Of a stretch of DNA of 28,177 nt, positions 11,466-28,177 are shown piece by piece. Position 1 is the stretch's first letter. Each line of letters starts with the position of its first letter. A program made the translations under genes and the position numbers. The DNA comes from Planctomycetota bacterium. Its GTDB lineage: Bacteria; Planctomycetota; UBA1135. The notes beneath the pieces were generated by a model. It ran no database searches, was not told the origin of the DNA, and saw only the letters and a program-made list of their open reading frames with translations. The stretch spans positions 1-28,177 of the forward strand of contig JASFYO010000056.1 in assembly GCA_045047305.1 (NCBI GenBank), in the 5' to 3' direction.

Positions 11466-12872
11466 CTAGAACTGGAAGTAGATAAACGGAGGATGGTCCA
11501 CGCGACTAAAAGCAAAAGTCAATGCAAACAACACCCCATAAACGAAGGCAAAAAGCCAACTTGGCGTGTGTTGAAGAACATCCACCTTACGCAAGCGTTG
11601 AGCAACTTCGTGAGCCACAAGCAAAACAGCAAACAGATAAACCCAATCCGTATCGAGGCTTTCCGTTCCAGTGCTCTGGAACAGAACAAAGGCTTGCAGG
11701 CTGGTCCACGCGCTTTCAAAGTCCGGCGCACGGAATAAAATCCAACAAATGCAGACGAACCAAAAGGTAAACACCGTGGAGAGGATTCGCCGTAAGGCCG
11801 AGTCGGGAAGGCGTCCGCCAAGGCCTCGATGCCAAAGCCGATGGAAAGCCAAAGCGATTCCGTGAAGCCCGCCCCACAACACAAAGTTCCAAGAGGCACC
11901 GTGCCATAAGCCACCAAGCAACATGGTGATCATGAGATTACGGTAGGTTGCAAAACTGGAACCTCGGCTACCGCCCAGCGGAATGTAGAGGTAGTCACGA
12001 AGCCAGGTGGAAAGACTAATGTGCCAGCGGCGCCAGAAATCCTGGATATCGACAGCAAGATAAGGTGCGTTGAAATTCAAACAGAGTTGATAACCGAGCA
12101 TCGCGGCGCAGGCAATCGCCATGTCGGAGTAGCCTGAAAAATCGCAGTAAATCTGCACCGCATAGGCCGGAACCGCAATCCACGCAGCGCCAACAGCCCA
12201 GTTTCCGGGATCGGAAAAATAAGCGTCAACCATGGGCGCCAAGTTGTCCGAAATGACAGCCTTCTTGATAAATCCTGAGAGGAAAAGGAAGAGAGCCGGC
12301 TTGAAGGCAATCCGTGCAATTCTCCTTGGCGTCTTTAACTGAGGTAGGAAGTCGGAGGCGCGAACAATCGGGCCAGCGACCAACTGCGGAAAGAAGCCTA
12401 CGAACAAAGACAAGTCGAGTAAGGACCTCGTGGGCTGCAGGCGTCGATAATAGATATCGAGGGAATACGACATCGTTTGGAAGGTGTAAAAGGAAACACC
12501 GACAGGCAGAATAATCTGTAAGGTCCCGATGTGGGGTTCAAAACCTAGACTCGTCAACAAACCAGCTGCAGAGCTTAGGAAGAAGTCGCAATACTTAAAG
12601 AAACCGAGAATCCCAAGGTTGACAAAAAGCGATAAACGCAACCACCACTTGCGACTACGGTCATTGGAGGCATCATGAATCCGCATTCCAGCGACATAAT
12701 CCACCAAAGTGGAGCCCACGATTAAGCCAAGAAAGCGCCAATCCCACGCCGCATAAAACGCATAGCTGGTAAGAAGTAGCCAAGCTTTGCGCGCTTTCAC
12801 ACCGCGCAAACACCAGTGCACCACAAAGACTAGTGCAAAGAAAGCAAGAAAACGGAACTCAGTGAACAGCAT
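11466..12872 (-). CDS. MBOAT family O-acyltransferase (AlgI/PatA/DltB-like)
   Basis: LPVGVSFYTFQ, FFPQLVAGPIVRA, QIYCDFSGYSDMA, FWRRWHISLSTWLRDYLYIPLGG, GLWHGA (catalytic His), C-terminal FIYFQF. Confidence 0.95.
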   Translation of the reverse strand: MLFTEFRFLAFFALVFVVHWCLRGVKARKAWLLLTSYAFYAAWDWRFLGLIVGSTLVDYVAGMRIHDASNDRSRKWWLRLSLFVNLGILGFFKYCDFFLSSAAGLLTSLGFEPHIGTLQIILPVGVSFYTFQTMSYSLDIYYRRLQPTRSLLDLSLFVGFFPQLVAGPIVRASDFLPQLKTPRRIARIAFKPALFLFLSGFIKKAVISDNLAPMVDAYFSDPGNWAVGAAWIAVPAYAVQIYCDFSGYSDMAIACAAMLGYQLCLNFNAPYLAVDIQDFWRRWHISLSTWLRDYLYIPLGGSRGSSFATYRNLMITMLLGGLWHGASWNFVLWGGLHGIALAFHRLWHRGLGGRLPDSALRRILSTVFTFWFVCICWILFRAPDFESAWTSLQAFVLFQSTGTESLDTDWVYLFAVLLVAHEVAQRLRKVDVLQHTPSWLFAFVYGVLFALTFAFSRVDHPPFIYFQF

Positions 12873-12875
12873 GGT

Positions 12876-13910
12876 TTAGTTTTCCTCTTCCTGAATGAGA
12901 GTGACGAAGTCAAATGCAAAAGTCATGGTCATGCGCTCCGCTGCTTGACGGTTCAGATGGTACAAATCGAAGTGCGCTTCCACTCGATAGAGTTCCGGGT
13001 GAGCCTCGGAATCGTCGTAGGCAATGAAATGCTGAATGACTCCACTTGCCTTCATGTACCTCCAACCCATATAGCGCTGCAAGTTAGGGTGCATCCACCA
13101 AATCAACTCAACCTCGTGACTAGCAGCCAACGCTTCTAGCTCTTGGATTGCGGACAGCATTCCAGAGTCCGGCAAATTTCTTGGGCCAGGCCCCTGCATG
13201 GCTTTGGCGCCTGCAATCAACTTTTGCGGATTACGACGGAAATTCCTTCGCATGCCACGCTGTTTCTCCGAAGCTGTGGCGACCTCCAAAGGAAGGTAAC
13301 CATCACCATTTGCGCCCAGTGATGCAAAGTTGGCGAATGTCTCTAACGGCTCTTTACCCCAGCGCTGGACCAGCTCTACTCCACGAGCTAACTGCAAAGA
13401 ACGGCGCCACCAGTGTTCCAAATGGCGCTGCATCAATGCCCATCGATCTTGCCACGGTGCATCTTGCGCGTAAATTTCAGCTAATAGACGCCACGTGGTT
13501 GGGGAGTCGTGCCACTCAATGCGACGTAGACCGAAATCATTTTCATTCTGCATCTCCACGACATAAGGGAGCGCCTCCACGACAATCCATTTAAGGTTGG
13601 GAGCATCCTCCTTCAAAATTCGATGCAGCATGTAGTACTCTTCCCAAAACCCCATGCCGAGTGAAGCAAGATTGACCGAGCGTAAGCCCGATGGTTCATC
13701 CTGGCGTTGAGCATCGAAGAGAGCTGGATCAAACTGACGGAACACATGGCTGGATCCAAGAAAGATGACATCGATCTCGTCTTTCACGGTTTTATAAAAC
13801 TCAACCTTGATGCGCTCGCGCATGTTGGCTCGTAACCAAGCACCGACCATAGCGAACCCACCCACGAACAGAACGAGGTATAGACTTATGCGTAAAACAG
13901 TCCGAGGCAT
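12876..13910 (-). CDS. Membrane-anchored SGNH-like protein (MBOAT partner, DltD/AlgJ-like)
   Basis: N-terminal TM helix, VIFLGSSH (block I Ser), NLASLG, C-terminal DxxH (FDLYHLN). Adjacent to the MBOAT gene. Confidence 0.72.
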   Translation of the reverse strand: MPRTVLRISLYLVLFVGGFAMVGAWLRANMRERIKVEFYKTVKDEIDVIFLGSSHVFRQFDPALFDAQRQDEPSGLRSVNLASLGMGFWEEYYMLHRILKEDAPNLKWIVVEALPYVVEMQNENDFGLRRIEWHDSPTTWRLLAEIYAQDAPWQDRWALMQRHLEHWWRRSLQLARGVELVQRWGKEPLETFANFASLGANGDGYLPLEVATASEKQRGMRRNFRRNPQKLIAGAKAMQGPGPRNLPDSGMLSAIQELEALAASHEVELIWWMHPNLQRYMGWRYMKASGVIQHFIAYDDSEAHPELYRVEAHFDLYHLNRQAAERMTMTFAFDFVTLIQEEEN

Positions 13911-13913
13911 TTC

Positions 13914-14936
13914 CTAATCCTCACCTTCTGTAAAATCTAAGGCGGAGTCCAACGCTTGAAAGTCTTGCGCGAAGGCAGCGGTTAACTTCTTCGACCCCTT
14001 TTTCGTTAGGTGGAACAAATCAAAATGCCAGCCAACCTTGTAAAATTCAGGGAATCTCTCCGGGTCATCAAAAGCGATAAAGTGGTCAAGCACTCCATCT
14101 GTATCCATGCGATGCCAACCTGGGGTGCGTCCAAGATTGGGGTGCAACCACCAAACCACCTGGACTCCTTGCTGTGACGCCAGTTGTTGAATTCGGACCA
14201 CCGCCTCTACCAAGGCGGGGTCAGCCGCGCCTCCATCTCCTGCTTGGGGCAAGCGAGCACGTGCTGCAAAGAGCTTTTGCGGATTCGCCAAAAAGGATTC
14301 GCGATTGACGCGACCTTTTTCACCGACCTCGCTCACCACCAAAGGAAGAAATCCATCCCGGGCCGGGCCCAAATCCTTTTGATCGGCATAGGCTAACAAT
14401 CCTGGCTTCCTGAACGCGCGGATGGCATCCATTCCACGAGCTATATGCAAACTCCGACGCCACCAGTGCTGCAAGTGTCGCTGGACCTGATCCCAGCGAT
14501 CCGACCACGGTGCATCACCAAACCAAGCAGCCTTCACCGAAAATAAAGTTACCGAGGCATTGTGCCACTGCAGACGTCGCAAGCCAAAATCGTTTTCGAC
14601 TTGCATAGCGGCAGACCAAGGTAATCCTTCTAGCACCAACCAGTCCAATCTCTTCGGATGCATTGCCAGGATACGTTCTACCAAATACAGCTGCTCCCTT
14701 ACACCCATTCCGGAAGCGCCCATATTGAGCGAACGGCCTTCACCGCGGGCGGCATCAAAGGTGCTGGGATCAAACTGATGAAAAATGTGGCTAGAGCCGA
14801 GGAAGATGACGTCGACCTGGTCCTTTTGGGTTTTCAGCCATTCCAGTTTCTGGCTTTCCGGTAGCCAATGCCCTATGCCGGCATTTGCGAAAACAAAGCC
14901 GCAGACAAACAGAAGCAGAAAAAGAAGGATGCGCAC
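13914..14936 (-). CDS. Membrane-anchored SGNH-like protein, paralog of 12876..13910
   Basis: VIFLGSSH, ENDFGLRR, HWWRRSL and FDLFHL shared with the neighbour. Start placed at GTG 14936 (MRILLFLLLF), just after the DUF819 stop. Confidence 0.72.
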   Translation of the reverse strand: MRILLFLLLFVCGFVFANAGIGHWLPESQKLEWLKTQKDQVDVIFLGSSHIFHQFDPSTFDAARGEGRSLNMGASGMGVREQLYLVERILAMHPKRLDWLVLEGLPWSAAMQVENDFGLRRLQWHNASVTLFSVKAAWFGDAPWSDRWDQVQRHLQHWWRRSLHIARGMDAIRAFRKPGLLAYADQKDLGPARDGFLPLVVSEVGEKGRVNRESFLANPQKLFAARARLPQAGDGGAADPALVEAVVRIQQLASQQGVQVVWWLHPNLGRTPGWHRMDTDGVLDHFIAFDDPERFPEFYKVGWHFDLFHLTKKGSKKLTAAFAQDFQALDSALDFTEGED

Positions 14937-14950
14937 AACGAGAATGACTA

Positions 14951-16177
14951 TTAGCCAGCGACAAGTTCTAGCATCCAAGAGCATACGATGGCCGCAACCG
15001 TTCCGAGCAGATAACCAGCAATGGCGAGCAAGGCTCCGACCGGTGCCAATGCCGGATGAAATGCACTTGCTACCACTGGGGCTGAGGCGGCCCCACCAAT
15101 ATTTGCTTTGGACCCGACGGCAAGAAAAAAGATAGGGGCTTTGAGATAGCGGCGCAGGCCGAGCATCATCAAGGCATGAAGTAACATCCAAACGGCGCCA
15201 ACCACCACCAAGCCTAAGTTTTCTGGTTGCAGTACCTTCGAAAACTCGGCCTTCGCGCCAATCGTAGCGACAAGGAGATACAAGAAAACAGATCCGACTT
15301 TGCTCGCGCCTACGCCTTCGAGCTTACGCATCGGGGTAAAGGAGAGCAGAAGGCCAAACAGCGAAACCAATAAAACAATCCAGGTGAAGCCAGTGATGTA
15401 GTGGCCCAAGCCTGGCAGGTGTTCTCCAACCCAAATATCCAAATCTGCCCCCATGGCGCGCGCCAGGACTGTGCCGCCTAGGCCCAAAGCGCAAATCATG
15501 AGCAAGGAACCTAAGTCGGTTGGCTTAGAGACAGATGCCTCATAATCGGCCACTCGATTGCGCACTTCATCTAAGCTTGTGCGATCGGCTCCAATCGCGG
15601 CGTCGGCCTTTTTCTCGCGGCCAGCAAACCAAAGCAGGACAGCCATCCAAATATTGGCTACCGCAACATCGACCACGATGATGGCACCCATGATGTCGGC
15701 ATTGGCGCCGGCGTGCGCTTGTAAGGCAATCATATTGGCACCACCACCAATCCAGGATCCAGCTAGCGCCGACAATCCACGCCAAGCTTGATCCAAGTTT
15801 TCTTCTGGAATGAGCCCTTGACATAAAAAGAGAGCCATCGGTCCGGCAAGCACAATGGTGACCGTGGCGCCGAGGAACATCACCACTGCGTTACGCCCCA
15901 GCTTGATAATCCCTTTGATGTCTACGGATAAAGTCAACAACAATAAACTTGCGGGCAGCAAATAGGACTTCACAAAGTCATACAGCGAACTATCTAATGG
16001 AATCAATCCGGTGTTGGAAAAAAGTGTCGGCACAAAATATGCGAATACCAAAAGCGGCACTACGCGGAACATGGCACCGAATTTTGCGTGCGCATTCATC
16101 CAAAACAAAAGCGCAAGAAACCCAAGCAAAACAGCAAGGACCTGCATGGGGTCGGAAAGCAGAGCGGGTTCAGGCAT
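14951..16177 (-). CDS. DUF819 family multi-pass membrane protein
   Basis: About 10 hydrophobic helices. Motifs LLPASLLLL, ALAGSWIGGGANM, VGSKANIGGAASAPVVA. Confidence 0.88.
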   Translation of the reverse strand: MPEPALLSDPMQVLAVLLGFLALLFWMNAHAKFGAMFRVVPLLVFAYFVPTLFSNTGLIPLDSSLYDFVKSYLLPASLLLLTLSVDIKGIIKLGRNAVVMFLGATVTIVLAGPMALFLCQGLIPEENLDQAWRGLSALAGSWIGGGANMIALQAHAGANADIMGAIIVVDVAVANIWMAVLLWFAGREKKADAAIGADRTSLDEVRNRVADYEASVSKPTDLGSLLMICALGLGGTVLARAMGADLDIWVGEHLPGLGHYITGFTWIVLLVSLFGLLLSFTPMRKLEGVGASKVGSVFLYLLVATIGAKAEFSKVLQPENLGLVVVGAVWMLLHALMMLGLRRYLKAPIFFLAVGSKANIGGAASAPVVASAFHPALAPVGALLAIAGYLLGTVAAIVCSWMLELVAG

Positions 16178-16185
16178 TTTCGGTT

Positions 16186-17094
16186 CTACTCTTTAGGCTG
16201 CAGAAGATGATCCGCTTGTAGTCGCTGGGATGGCGACAAGAATCGCTTCCAGTCACCTTGTAAAGAAGCATTCACGCGGCATGCTTGGGCTTCGGATAAG
16301 TCCAACTTCTGCAATGGGGATTGCAGCAAGTAGTATTTCTGCTGCGCATCAAGGCGCATCGATTTAGCAGTGCGTAACTCTGCATGAGTCGAAAGCTGCG
16401 GGAGCGAGATGATTTCGGGGTCGTACCAAACTTGTACCACCTCATCCTTCCCCACCCAACCTTGACGGGTTTTCATGACACCGTCCACGAGGCCGAACTC
16501 GGCCTCACCTTCCCAGAATCATGACATGCCGAAGATGGCGCTTTCCACGCCACGCTTTTGCGCTAGTTCCTCGGAAGCGACTAACTGCAACCAAATGGGT
16601 ACTTCTAGCTTTGCCGCAGTGAGGCCATCCACCAGGGCAGATGCAAATGCGGCCGTAGTCCAATCCTTGGCCACGCGCGGGATGAGATTATCGCCGTTGG
16701 AGTCAACTACGCGAAGCACTTGGAAGTTCCAAGCGGGTTCTTCATAGCGCGCAAGAACCGCGGCATCGGCATCGCCTTCGGTATTGTTGTAGATGGCGAT
16801 TGGAACGAACAACTCTTCCGCTGCTTCTACCAGTAATGGGTGCGTCAAGACCTGGGCACCATAACTTTGACACCCCACTCAGCCCGGAACTTCCTGAAAA
16901 AGAAGAAGCACCGGTTTTGCGCTTTGCTTTGCCAGGACTAGCCCCTGCTCAAAATCGCGCCCCCACTTCACTTGACCCAATTCCACCGGTTGTTCCACAC
17001 GGCCCTTTAATGGGGACCATGCGGAATTTAAGGATTCGAGTTTCGACGTCTCTTGAGGCAAGAGCAGGACAGCCGTAAAAAGCAAACTCAGCAT
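16186..17094 (-). CDS. Probable two-selenocysteine protein: exported thioredoxin-like domain (VPG-U-x-x-C) fused to an MsrA-like domain (GMS-U-FW), 302 aa
   Basis: Track ORFs 16879..17094, 16519..16878 and 16186..16488 share one frame and are separated only by TGA at 16879-16881 and 16519-16521. Read-through gives LLLFQEVPG-U-VGCQSYG and AIFGMS-U-FWEGEAEFGLVDGVMKTRQGW..EVVQVWYDPEIIS..QKYYL. Confidence 0.88.
16489..16506 (-). promoter_or_regulatory. Candidate bacterial SECIS hairpin for the UGA at 16519-16521
   Basis: mRNA GAGGCCG-AGUU-CGGCCUC, a perfect 7-bp stem. The stem starts 12 nt after the UGA and the loop 19 nt after it. Confidence 0.7.
16854..16875 (-). promoter_or_regulatory. Candidate SECIS hairpin for the UGA at 16879-16881
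   Basis: mRNA GGGUGUCA-AAGUUA-UGGUGCCC, 8 bp including 3 G-U pairs, AGUU in the loop. A longer alternative fold pairs UGGGGUGUCAA with UUGACGCACCCA (16837..16877). Confidence 0.45.
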
Positions 17095-17103
17095 GCAGTC
17101 ATC

Positions 17104-17568
17104 TTAGTTCTGCGGAAAGTCCGGCAAAGGCGGCATTCCACTCGGACCAGCTTGCGCCGGCGCGCCACCTTGCTGCTGCGGAGCTTCCACGTGCTCCAAA
17201 ATGTGCCGTGGCCACTCCACTGGTGCACCATCCAAAATCAAGCGGAAGGTGTAAGTGCCGTATTCCTCGAAGGGCATCCCTGCAAGCCGGATGACAGCAC
17301 GCGCTTTGGCTTTACGGTCGGCAAGATTCACCGTAGGCAGCTTCATGTTCTGAGCTTTGCCGCTTGGCGCTTCAATCTGCAAGCCAACTTCGTAATCGCC
17401 GAGGCCATCGCTGAGGCCGAGGGCAACGCAAAGCATGGGAAGGCTGCCAGGAAGCTTCACCGAGGCAAGCGAATCGAAAAGTCCAATCATGCACAGCTTG
17501 CCAGCTTCGTCACGGAAGGCGTGGTCGCACACATGCAACCAGTCGAGGGTAGGGAGAGGTTTACTCAT
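17104..17568 (-). CDS. Conserved hypothetical protein (DUF6941-like)
   Basis: VCDHAFRDEAGKLCMIGLFD..P, F...GTYTF pattern; beta-rich, with a Pro/Gln-rich tail. Confidence 0.65.
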   Translation of the reverse strand: MSKPLPTLDWLHVCDHAFRDEAGKLCMIGLFDSLASVKLPGSLPMLCVALGLSDGLGDYEVGLQIEAPSGKAQNMKLPTVNLADRKAKARAVIRLAGMPFEEYGTYTFRLILDGAPVEWPRHILEHVEAPQQQGGAPAQAGPSGMPPLPDFPQN

Positions 17569-20419: not shown

Positions 20420-21352
20420 ATGTTGCCAGCCCTTCTCCTATTGCTTGCCCAACACCAAGCTGACCCCAGCGATTTGGCTCCGCCAAGCCCCTCTGCCGAA
20501 AGCTTGGCCGAAGCTGCCCGAGAGAACCGCAGCTTATTGATAATTTCTTCGTCTGCGGATGAAACACGAAAAGCAGAGATGGCGGCGCTGTTGAACTATT
20601 CCACCATCCGCAGGGAAATTCAATATGAGTTCCTTGTGTCTTACCGGCCTGGCCCTGCGCGTCCGGGTGGTCCTCCATCAACCTCGATGAGTTTTTGGGA
20701 CAGTTCAGGAAAGTTGGGGAAATACGTTGCTTACGAGCAACTGCTTACTGCCGCTGGCAAACCAGACGCGCAAAAGTTCCTGCAGCTGCTGAAGCAAAAC
20801 GAATCGGCCCCACTCGATGCAATCAAGGTTCTGGAAAGTGCCCGCCAAACTGCGCTTCAAGAAAAAAAGCGGTTATTCATTCACCTTGGAGCTCCTTGGT
20901 GAGGTTGGTGCGTGCCCTTCGAGGAGTTCCTCGAAGACCCAGTGGTTGCTCCTATTCTGGAACGCGATTTTGTGCTGGTAAAAATTGATGTCGACCGCAT
21001 GATCAACGGAAAACGAGTTGGACTTGGTTTACGTGCTGGCAAAGACCGTGGTATCCCTTGGTACGTCATCATGACCGCCGAAGATTCCTTATTGCGCGCA
21101 AAGCCCACGGACGACGGCAACCCACCTGCAATAAATGCCGTATTACAACGACGTAAGTCTTCCATGCTCGCCAATGCTTACGATCCAGATGGGAACAATG
21201 TTGGCTTTCCAGCCAGCCCAGAGGAACGTGCCCATTTTATGCATACTTTGCGCGAAACCACTACTAGCATCACGGCTGAGGAGTTAGAGGTGATTGGAAA
21301 CGCTCTGTACAAGCTAGCGCATGAGCAGATTGGAGATGAGGCCGACGGCTAG
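20420..21352 (+). CDS. Probable selenoprotein: exported thioredoxin-family protein with W-U-G-W-C active site, 310 aa
   Basis: Track ORFs 20420..20902 and 20912..21352 are in frame across TGA 20900-20902. Read-through gives EKKRLFIHLGAPW-U-GWCVPFEEFL..DFVLVKIDVD..GIPW (cis-Pro loop). Confidence 0.9.
20917..20936 (+). promoter_or_regulatory. Candidate bacterial SECIS hairpin for the UGA at 20900-20902
   Basis: CUUCGAGG-AGUU-CCUCGAAG, a perfect 8-bp stem. The stem starts 14 nt after the UGA and the loop 22 nt after it. Confidence 0.7.
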
Positions 21353-26315: not shown

Positions 26316-28177
26316 TTGCCTCAATATATTAGGTTCCAAGCATATTCCTCCTGCTACACATCCCCAAGCCGATTCGATTCCTTGCAAACTCTAAATTCCA
26401 CAACTGATCCTGATCTGGATAAACCTGCGGCCAATTACCTTTCAATTCTTCTCGGACAACTTCCACTCTCCGTAGCAGAAGCCAAGGTTGTATTACGCTT
26501 ATCCCATGCGCTCGGCAAAGCCTTTTTTTCAATCCAAGATTTCCTCAAACTTGATGTAGAAGCTCTTGAGAAACTTGACGGGATTGGGGTTGGCTACCTT
26601 GATCGGATTGAACGATTGCAGCAAAGGATCCCAACCTTAGGATTGCGGCATTGGGCTGCACTTGGCCATGCAGAATCCAAGCAACTTCAAATTCTTGAAG
26701 CCAAATTGACTGCCCCCATGAGGAAATCCTTGGAGAAACTCAAACGCTGTGCTGACCGCGAACCATCCTCCATGACTTCTGCTGCATCCTTACTCGAAAT
26801 TAATTATGACGCACTAGAACTGGAAAGTAGTTGGGGAGGAATAACGGTATCGCCCTTGCGCGAACTCTGCCATGCCATTTGTCAAAGACTAGGAGGAATG
26901 CTATCGGAAGAAGCGGAATGTTCCCTCCCCCCATTCTTTCTTGAAGAAATAGATTTCAGCACTGCTGCTAAAATTGACGCTTATCTCGCCTCCTCGATTC
27001 CATCCTTTCTCGATGGGCTAAAAAACCCACGTTCTAAACTTGTTTTAGAAGCCCGCATGGGCATTTCTCGCGAAAGAGCGACTCTAGAAACTGTAGGCTC
27101 TCTGATTCATGAAGCAGGATGGTCAAAAGAGAAAATTACTCGCGAACGTGTACGACAGATAGAGCAAAAGGAAAGGGATCTACTTTATGGCTCCCTCCAT
27201 GTGCCATCAAAGGATGTAGTTGCAGCCGCAAACCCGAATCCCACTTCCAAACCAGCCGACTTTCTGCCCCAAACAGCCGCATTATTCCATAGCAATGAGC
27301 TGTTTTTAGACTTCCTTGCCGATTGGTCGGGGAAATCAAAGGATGACCTACGCAAACAAGAAACAGAGGGGGTTTTTCGATCTCTGTTCCCGCTGTTCGA
27401 AACCGTTTGCGGACCTTATTCCAAAAACACCTTGGTAGAGAATCTGCGCGAAGCGGAAAAGGATTCTGAGGAAAACTGTCGTGAAAAGATTCGGCTCATG
27501 GTGCAAGAGGGACTTTTGCATCAGTCTCCGGGGGGTGCTTTGACGCCAGTGCGTTTGCCCGTGCGCATTGCAGTACCCAATTTTTATTTGGAGACCGATT
27601 CCGGCCTGCATTGGGCCGAGGCCATGGAATACATGGAGGAAGCCGATTCCTTAAGCGAGCCATTCCCCGCCGAAAGAGCATTTCAAGTCAGAGTTCAGAG
27701 TCACCCACAGCTTTATTATTGTGGTCCTCCCGGCACCTATCGTCATCGTAAATACCATCAACTTCCGGACTCTTCTGCCCTTCCCTGGATTCGCTTCGTA
27801 AAGTCACGCCTTGGCGAAAAGGCCGAAAACCTCCGTTATTGGTTCCACAAACAAAACCTTTATGGAGTCGTGGACTATCATGAACTTCGTGACATCATCA
27901 ATCGTCTAGGTGAAAAGGAAGGACTTTATTTCTGGGGTCAATCACGTCGCGAAACACTCGCCTTAGACCCCAACGCTGCCTCCGTGCCCAACGATGCCGT
28001 AATCATTGACTTTCTCGAGACCGAAGCGCGCCCCTTAACTCGATTAGAGATTCACCAAGGACTGCCTTTCATCGAGGATTCGACTCTCGACATGCAACTC
28101 ACCGAATTAACTCAGGCTGGTCGGATTCGCAAAACCGATTTGAGACATTGGACTGCTGTACGATTGGGTGAGGCGGC
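26316..28177 (+). CDS. Large protein with RNAP alpha-CTD-like (HhH) and sigma70 region-4-like HTH domains; runs off right edge
   Basis: Not in the ORF track because no stop falls in the window. Manual translation is open for about 620 codons from TTG 26316 (alternative TTG 26382). It contains IQDFLKLDVEALEKLDGIGVGYLDRI and LVLEARMG..ATLETVG..ITRERVRQIEQK. Confidence 0.78.
   Translation, partial: MPQYIRFQAYSSCYTSPSRFDSLQTLNSTTDPDLDKPAANYLSILLGQLPLSVAEAKVVLRLSHALGKAFFSIQDFLKLDVEALEKLDGIGVGYLDRIERLQQRIPTLGLRHWAALGHAESKQLQILEAKLTAPMRKSLEKLKRCADREPSSMTSAASLLEINYDALELESSWGGITVSPLRELCHAICQRLGGMLSEEAECSLPPFFLEEIDFSTAAKIDAYLASSIPSFLDGLKNPRSKLVLEARMGISRERATLETVGSLIHEAGWSKEKITRERVRQIEQKERDLLYGSLHVPSKDVVAAANPNPTSKPADFLPQTAALFHSNELFLDFLADWSGKSKDDLRKQETEGVFRSLFPLFETVCGPYSKNTLVENLREAEKDSEENCREKIRLMVQEGLLHQSPGGALTPVRLPVRIAVPNFYLETDSGLHWAEAMEYMEEADSLSEPFPAERAFQVRVQSHPQLYYCGPPGTYRHRKYHQLPDSSALPWIRFVKSRLGEKAENLRYWFHKQNLYGVVDYHELRDIINRLGEKEGLYFWGQSRRETLALDPNAASVPNDAVIIDFLETEARPLTRLEIHQGLPFIEDSTLDMQLTELTQAGRIRKTDLRHWTAVRLGEA

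Follow-up and report, generated by a model that had tools for sequence, protein, structure and literature searches.

What does a bacterial reading frame encode when it is interrupted twice by TGA, once at a thioredoxin-like active site and once at a position resembling the catalytic centre of MsrA? The locus that raises this question lies in a 28,177-nucleotide stretch of planctomycete DNA (the window) on contig C56 of a genome assembly of 2.83 Mb that is 88% complete. A first-pass annotation of the letters alone had proposed that three consecutive ORFs at 16186-17094 form one reading frame split by two TGA codons and closed by TAA. The position is correct, while the strand, which had been left unstated, is minus. 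Translation of this strand bears out a single frame of 302 codons whose sole internal stops are TGA72 and TGA192, and all of the motifs quoted at first pass (VPG-U-VG-C, FGMS-U-FWEGE and others) are located in it; the final codon is TAG, not TAA. A plus-strand reading of the same interval was rejected, as it contains stops throughout and is non-coding. At the level of the gene, the features are:

16186..17094, minus strand: whole gene, 302 aa, with ATG at 17094, TAG at 16186-16188 and two in-frame TGA codons
16879-17094, 16519-16878 and 16186-16488, minus strand: the three ORFs under translation table 11, of 71, 119 and 100 aa
17050..17094, minus strand: short hydrophobic leader spanning about residues 1-15, at the peak of hydropathy and probably a Sec signal peptide
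16870..16881, minus strand: UxxC motif U72-V-G-C75 with TGA72 at 16879-16881, context QEVPG-U-VGC
16519..16521, minus strand: TGA192, predicted selenocysteine (Sec) at the MsrA catalytic position (M-S-U-F-W-x-G-E), context FGMS-U-FWEGE

Codon use is coding-like in all three segments of the frame. A hydropathy scan of the protein in steps of 11 residues peaks at the leader, and other loci with TGA at both sites (TGA/TGA loci) likewise begin with hydrophobic leaders, suggesting that this leader is probably a Sec signal peptide and the protein exported. A 77.8-kb contig of run X1, an assembled contig rather than raw reads and from a run possibly related to the source sample, covers the stretch with 15 differences, none of which falls inside TGA72 or TGA192. 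The genes on the same strand of the window are ordered SDR, DUF6941, the double-TGA gene and a DUF819 membrane gene. The upstream DUF6941 gene stops (TAA) in frame three codons before the ATG of the double-TGA gene (window 17095-17106, minus strand), and this ATG has no obvious Shine-Dalgarno sequence; translational coupling between the two genes is possible. Among 87 loci compared, no conserved gene neighbourhood was found, and common neighbours are confined to close kin, with the exception of short-chain dehydrogenase genes near seven loci.

The read-through protein scores 338.7 bits on the NCBIfam model NF041383 (VPGUxxT family thioredoxin-like (seleno)protein, type 2; curated cut-off 275 bits) in a match that spans both TGA codons, confirming the family resemblance that had been suggested at first pass. 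The model has 287 positions and covers both domains, the MsrA-like half included. The residue preceding C75 is G, as in 42/120 homologues, against the T of the family name. Protein databases yielded 192 homologues, and in an alignment of the 120 listed among them Cys occupies column 72 in 119 and, likewise, column 192 in 119, so the predicted Cys alignment at both TGA sites holds. C75 is retained in 114 of the 120, with CxxC lost in some. Trp or variable residues at the two columns, named at first pass as a sign against Sec, are not the pattern found: Trp is seen in only one of the 120. This sole non-Cys homologue, P0003, has Trp at both columns and shares 93% identity with a locus that carries TGA at both sites, for which reason it is probably a mistranslation of TGA as Trp.

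Could the organism nevertheless read TGA as Trp, or as another residue, in general? P0003 with its W at both sites would fit such a code, to which we give next to no probability: TGA terminates 403 of 1352 long coding-like frames in the source genome, only 9/402 of these stay coding-like for 40 more codons beyond the TGA, the only tRNA found with a TCA anticodon is tRNA-Sec, and no other of the 120 homologues has Trp at these columns. A TGA=Trp code was rejected, TGA being an ordinary stop here. The Sec machinery whose presence was to be checked is all in the genome (selA, selB, selD and tRNA-Sec, the product of selC); tRNA-Sec adjoins selD, which itself has one in-frame TGA. Other genomes with the TGA form carry selA in 15/15 and selB in 14/15 cases. 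Having the machinery is a prerequisite but does not tell the two forms apart, because relatives with Cys forms mostly carry it too (selA in 3/4, selB in 4/4).

Since protein databases can only contain stop-free forms, we tallied the codons at the two sites in DNA. Of 61 related genomes (the source genome included), 17 have a match above the NF041383 cut-off; the 20 strong loci in these 61 genomes comprise 14 TGA/TGA (including our own), three Cys/Cys and three cut by contig ends. In a collection of species genomes, the best 80 of 577 loci comprise 15 TGA/TGA, 59 Cys/Cys, one TGA/Cys and five that the site patterns did not resolve, and the nearest named loci are those of Planctomycetota MAGs at 57-66% identity. 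TGA forms are under-sampled in this second search because one of its three patterns required Cys at site 2. After four duplicates were dropped, the merged set holds 96 loci: 25 TGA/TGA, 62 Cys/Cys, one TGA/Cys and eight partial, with the Cys/TGA combination absent among all 96. The two TGA codons are 117-122 codons apart in the 25 TGA/TGA loci, always without an intervening stop. These loci belong to our genome, 13 relatives, 10 named Planctomycetota and one unclassified bacterium, and the Cys/Cys forms to Bacteroidota, Verrucomicrobiota, Planctomycetota and others.

Both sites are TGA in 25 of the 26 full loci with any TGA, a figure inflated by kinship; a joint Sec switch at both sites would fit a coupled pair. 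On a quickly built tree covering the 88 full loci, two changes are needed to account for the TGA/TGA label: 23 of the 25 TGA/TGA loci form a single group (support 86), and the other two sit in a separate group (support 99) alongside Cys forms and the TGA/Cys form. This distribution may reflect either two gains or one gain plus losses. The only TGA/Cys member, L064, has Sec at the thioredoxin site and Cys at the MsrA-type site and lacks the site-2 peptide signature described below; it is a natural intermediate.

The NF041383 score above cut-off, the Cys columns, the 24 other TGA/TGA loci and the X1 contig argue that the frame with its two TGA codons did not arise by chance. We conclude that the three ORFs very likely are one conserved gene in which both TGA codons encode Sec. 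The proposal of Sec in both domains is thus upheld by the Cys columns and the TGA/TGA relatives, together with the Sec machinery.

If both codons are read as Sec, a bacterial SECIS hairpin would be expected behind each. The consensus given in the Fig. 2 legend of PMC13188914 comprises a loop of 3-9 nt with G in its first two positions, a spacing of 16-37 nt, a stem of 4-16 bp and an energy of at most -7.5 kcal/mol. Two elements were located:

16489..16506, minus strand: SECIS hairpin for TGA192, with a 7-bp stem and compensatory changes in relatives
16839..16860, minus strand: candidate SECIS for TGA72, a hairpin conserved in TGA-bearing relatives

The TGA192 hairpin, with a 4-nt AGUU loop, a distance of 19 nt past the UGA and an energy of -14.3 kcal/mol (z -4.9), lies within every limit of that published consensus. 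The stem has its full seven pairs in 22/26 TGA loci against 0/67 Cys loci, and the fold beats synonymous recodings in 23/26 against 15/67. In a stem alignment of 23 of the 26 loci, 98.8% of cells are paired and five cells are changed on both sides; none of 500 shuffles reached this pairing, although the 23 loci include relatives that are non-independent. The hairpin also leaves its mark on the protein, as the peptide signature that SECIS imposes at site 2 is found in 21/25 TGA/TGA genes and 0/62 Cys/Cys genes. At site 1, 18/27 TGA loci have a region that folds better than its synonymous recodings, compared with 4/64 Cys loci, and the mean hairpin energy is -9.9 kcal/mol in TGA loci against -5.1 in Cys loci. 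The source copy reaches -6.4 kcal/mol, against the limit of -7.5, and is equalled by 20% of its synonymous recodings; a rival longer fold at this site reaches -19.5, with an apical stem of just 3 bp. Judged by the codons, the case for Sec72 appears equal in strength to that for Sec192.

The weak site-1 hairpin in the source copy would fit a locus in which a single TGA is read as Sec, a set of separate genes or a decaying pseudogene, and so would its C-domain, which is shorter than that of any other of the 25 TGA/TGA members and falls about 27 residues below most. We consider all of these readings very improbable. The two TGA codons fall exactly on invariant Cys columns and persist in 25 loci spanning an order, these loci have no other stops or frameshifts, all three segments retain coding-like codon use, and termination at codon 72 would yield a leader and only half of a domain.

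How, then, do such genes appear in protein databases? The site-2 peptide signature occurs in 1/268 database proteins, namely the one seemingly misread with Trp. Among the best 150 of 3639 profile matches are many N-terminally cut pieces, and no stand-alone C-domain was found among the seven of eight short matches that we inspected, all of which start past the second site. We read these seven as gene-caller fragments; that gene callers would break up the gene had been anticipated, and the database pieces beginning past the second site agree with it.

The family, including its MsrA-like half, is already catalogued, and the second Sec is absent from the sections of the catalogue covered. Table 1 of a 2026 review (PMC13188914) enters NF041383 as hypothetical protein OS_HP5 with one Sec and the motif VPGU, and gives no link to MsrA there; here and in the 24 other loci, a second Sec would sit at the MsrA-type catalytic site. 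OS_HP5 is listed without a motif in PMC9312934, as seen in part, and does not appear in the main text of PMC1976440, which is cited as its source; the main text of PMC12013277 likewise has no MsrA or VPG. Bacterial proteins with two Sec residues in one chain are known, among them MduS, MbdU, TsoB and the HUGP/GUXX-star fusion (PMC13188914, Table 1), and our protein would resemble them in this respect. In the sections of that table covered, no entry combines a UxxC thioredoxin and a Sec of MsrA type. Neither the second Sec nor the likeness to CoMsrA set out below is described in the literature searched.

The combination of a thioredoxin-like with an MsrA-derived domain, as suggested at first pass, is borne out by profiles and folds. 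A structure model of the full protein has a pLDDT of 91.7 and a pTM of 0.86, and the domains are placed as follows:

16603..16992, minus strand: thioredoxin-like domain, about residues 35-164, Thioredoxin_7 / DsbD-gamma-like fold
16327..16551, minus strand: catalytic domain of MsrA type in shortened form, about residues 182-256, keeping U192, F193, W194, E218 and Y254
16192..16326, minus strand: helical subdomain at the C-terminus, about residues 257-301, whose structural counterpart is the helical domain in CoMsrA

Profile matches are weak and cover residues 44-111 for Thioredoxin_7 (PF13899, E 6.7e-7) and residues 186-215 for PMSR. The predicted N-domain matches 3f9u (Z 15.2, rmsd 2.4, 121 aligned residues), and the VPG-U/C motif is present at its active site as QEVPG-U-VGC. 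The C-domain, modelled alone with a pLDDT of 94.6, matches the MsrA of Clostridium oremlandii (CoMsrA; 4lwj, chain 6-210) over 120/123 residues with a Z of 12.2 and an rmsd of 3.1. The next-best entry has a Z of 9.1, other MsrAs score 7.2-9.1 across about 80-90 residues, HMA metal-binding domains score 6-7 across about 60 residues, and the top six rows of a Foldseek search are all CoMsrA chains. CoMsrA is an MsrA with one Sec and no resolving Cys that is recycled by glutaredoxin rather than thioredoxin; a helical domain at its C-terminus, which other solved MsrAs lack, is needed to hold the active site (PMC4479559, PMC4333827). Because CoMsrA is matched over 120/123 residues and other solved MsrAs lack this domain, the tail of our modelled protein is most simply read as a CoMsrA-type helical domain. 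Within the tail, Q270, N275 and Q290 (LSPxQ290) are invariant.

Much of the catalytic centre is kept. The active site of CoMsrA comprises GCFWG, Tyr47, Glu55, Gln89, Tyr90, His137 and Tyr140 (PMC4333827), and in MsrA the acid is Glu94 and the proton donor Tyr82 or Tyr134 (PMC6210582). The catalytic Sec-Phe-Trp and the general acid are present as U192-F193-W194 and E218 (Glu94, or Glu55 of CoMsrA), the latter invariant (120/120 homologues and 68/68), and the pocket Tyr is kept as Y254 (Tyr140 of CoMsrA); the Gly before the catalytic Cys of MsrA is not kept. With its catalytic Sec, Glu, stacking Tyr and helical domain, and with no resolving Cys in the source copy, the C-domain thus resembles CoMsrA (4lwj, 4u66), although it is about 80 residues shorter and lacks Tyr47, Gln89-Tyr90 and His137, of which no counterparts exist family-wide. 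According to sequence alignments, the segments bearing the sulfoxide-binding Tyr82 and Tyr134 (Tyr47 and Tyr90 of CoMsrA) are both deleted: the loop of 13-17 residues bearing Tyr47/Tyr82 is cut to four residues in 201 of 208 sequences (five unmatched), and neither QYR[ST] nor HQxY occurs in any of the 208, a set combining 120 sequences from databases with 88 derived from DNA, between which there may be overlap. The position of His137, mapped by motif spacing, would correspond to Q251 here and is mostly Glu/Asp in the family, next to the conserved R247 and D249. The MsrA model TIGR00401 (cut-off 108.1) is not reached, with 24.0 bits for the whole protein and 27.4 for the C-domain, and PF01625 is barely reached (25.2 against 23.7, over 30 residues). 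By the tests made, the C-domain derives from MsrA but falls outside the MsrA family itself.

The first-pass annotation had gone further and proposed an exported enzyme of methionine-sulfoxide repair. This role is not established: the Tyr82 loop, the QY segment and the His are lost, and 24-27 bits compare with an MsrA cut-off of 108. The role may also already be filled, because the source genome has a canonical Sec-MsrA as well as MsrB. The former (L116, at C3:108509-108949) has a lipoprotein-like leader, G-U-FWG and all motifs, and an MsrA with one TGA was seen in 7/12 relatives having a match; the genome further encodes a three-part DsbD.

We lean slightly towards the reading that the protein is an exported relay, in which a DsbD-fed UxxC domain recycles Sec192 after the reduction of an S=O-type substrate. 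SelB and tRNA-Sec would almost certainly decode both UGAs via the in-frame hairpins, and the leader very probably directs export. Sec192 would then attack the oxidised substrate, with Glu218 as the acid, to form a selenenic acid. The C-domain of the source copy has no conserved resolving Cys. Sec72 is predicted, with reasonable confidence, to attack the selenenic acid of Sec192, after which Cys75 would resolve the bond and membrane DsbD re-reduce the UxxC. That the substrate is a sulfoxide is predicted with even confidence; that it is specifically peptide methionine-S-sulfoxide is doubtful, because the pocket has been rebuilt.

The same rebuilt pocket lends weight to another explanation, which we hold to be a serious possibility while rating it below even: the protein would be a true double selenoprotein whose C-domain no longer acts on sulfoxides and instead, supplied by the UxxC domain, handles peroxides, selenenic/sulfenic proteins, disulfides or metal(loid)s. 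Both sulfoxide-binding Tyr residues and the His are lost family-wide, with Arg247, Asp249 and an acid at 251 found instead; a canonical MsrA above cut-off is present in 12/19 genomes with the double-domain gene; and the core resembles HMA metal-binding domains. The latter resemblance, however, is at a Z level within the range of a common arrangement, the catalytic Sec/Cys, Phe-Trp, Glu and stacking Tyr are all retained, and an active MsrA gives the top structural match, the only one to span the full length.

What precedent is there for a thioredoxin-like domain serving a fused MsrA-type domain? The exported PilB of Neisseria joins a Trx-like domain to MsrA and MsrB and is fed by DsbD, and our protein would be like it in fusing an exported Trx-like to an Msr domain with DsbD as the electron source (PMC6210582, as seen in part). 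The MsrA and MsrB domains of PilB are complete, and its sites have only Cys; here the MsrA is cut down, both sites are Sec, the Trx domain is of the Thioredoxin_7/DsbD-gamma type, and profiles and structure reveal no MsrB domain in the 302 aa. The comparison with CoMsrA differs in that our C-domain is fused to its presumed reductant and likely exported, while CoMsrA uses a separate glutaredoxin. Because CoMsrA is not reduced by thioredoxin (PMC4479559), a Trx-like partner is an analogy to it and not a match. This requirement for glutaredoxin, and the observation that the Trx-like domain of PilB may not serve its MsrA domain (PMC6210582), leave some room for two real Sec residues in independent domains, the UxxC serving other exported proteins and Sec192 using a separate reductant. 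An extra Cys 40-61 residues past the catalytic one, found in 16/25 TGA/TGA and 53/62 Cys/Cys members, could resolve internally, and the loss of CxxC in some database members points the same way. We nevertheless find such independence quite improbable: both sites are TGA in nearly all full loci with any TGA, the source copy lacks the extra Cys, which falls in the roughly 27 residues missing from its C-domain, and the pTM of the full-length model suggests fixed packing.

Returning to the relay, a broader reconstruction can be offered as speculation that we regard as rather unlikely in its entirety. The protein would be a self-contained, exported Sec-to-Sec relay of a Sec-thioredoxin and a minimal CoMsrA-type domain, its pocket remodelled, through loss of two Tyr and the His and gain of Arg and acids, to take something else than methionine sulfoxide as substrate. 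Both Sec residues and their SECIS elements would have been gained or lost jointly at least two times in one Planctomycetota lineage, with the double-Sec clade nearly absent in full length from protein databases.

Apart from this gene, the source genome looks rich in selenoproteins, as far as a genome-wide TGA scan suggests that was a rough filter and no census, missing selD and TGA72. A second hidden selenoprotein lies in the window at 20420-21352 (plus strand): 310 aa with a hydrophobic leader, a Thioredoxin_7/DsbH-like domain and W-U-GW-C, with its TGA at 20900-20902 followed by an 8-bp hairpin with an AGUU loop as at site 2. Six of seven other genomes with a match (30 searched) have one TGA in its homologue, and no NCBIfam model scores it above cut-off. 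Elsewhere, D-[LV]-U-S-[SF]-FWR surrounds an in-frame TGA on contigs C63 (minus strand, near 569 and 3738) and C17 (plus strand, near 343), in three long frames whose TGA is each followed by a hairpin; further TGA candidates on C23, C82, C3, C44 and C7 read APUGPC, WUPLC, WUGPC, PTUSPC, TFVUPS and ATUHAP. The window also holds, at 11466-15191 (minus strand), an MBOAT (AlgI-like) acyltransferase gene after two genes for similar proteins (12876-13910 and 13914-15191) that have no Pfam match, a group we take to resemble an O-acetylation cluster. At 26316-28175 (plus strand), a 620-aa frame runs off the contig end; it has no Pfam match at E 0.001, and by eye contains stretches that we presume to be RNA polymerase alpha-CTD-like and sigma-4-like.

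These results reveal neither a new type of recoding nor a new family. They add a second Sec site to a family listed with one in the 2026 inventory (PMC13188914, Table 1), and they tie a family of unassigned function to a solved enzyme type, the one-Sec CoMsrA with its helical domain, which leads to a concrete assay. They also point to a blind spot in the databases, as a site-2 signature common in TGA/TGA genes is nearly missing from database proteins. If the relay is true, a single chain of 300 residues would offer a system for electron transfer from Sec to Sec, with natural Cys/Cys and Sec/Cys forms as controls.
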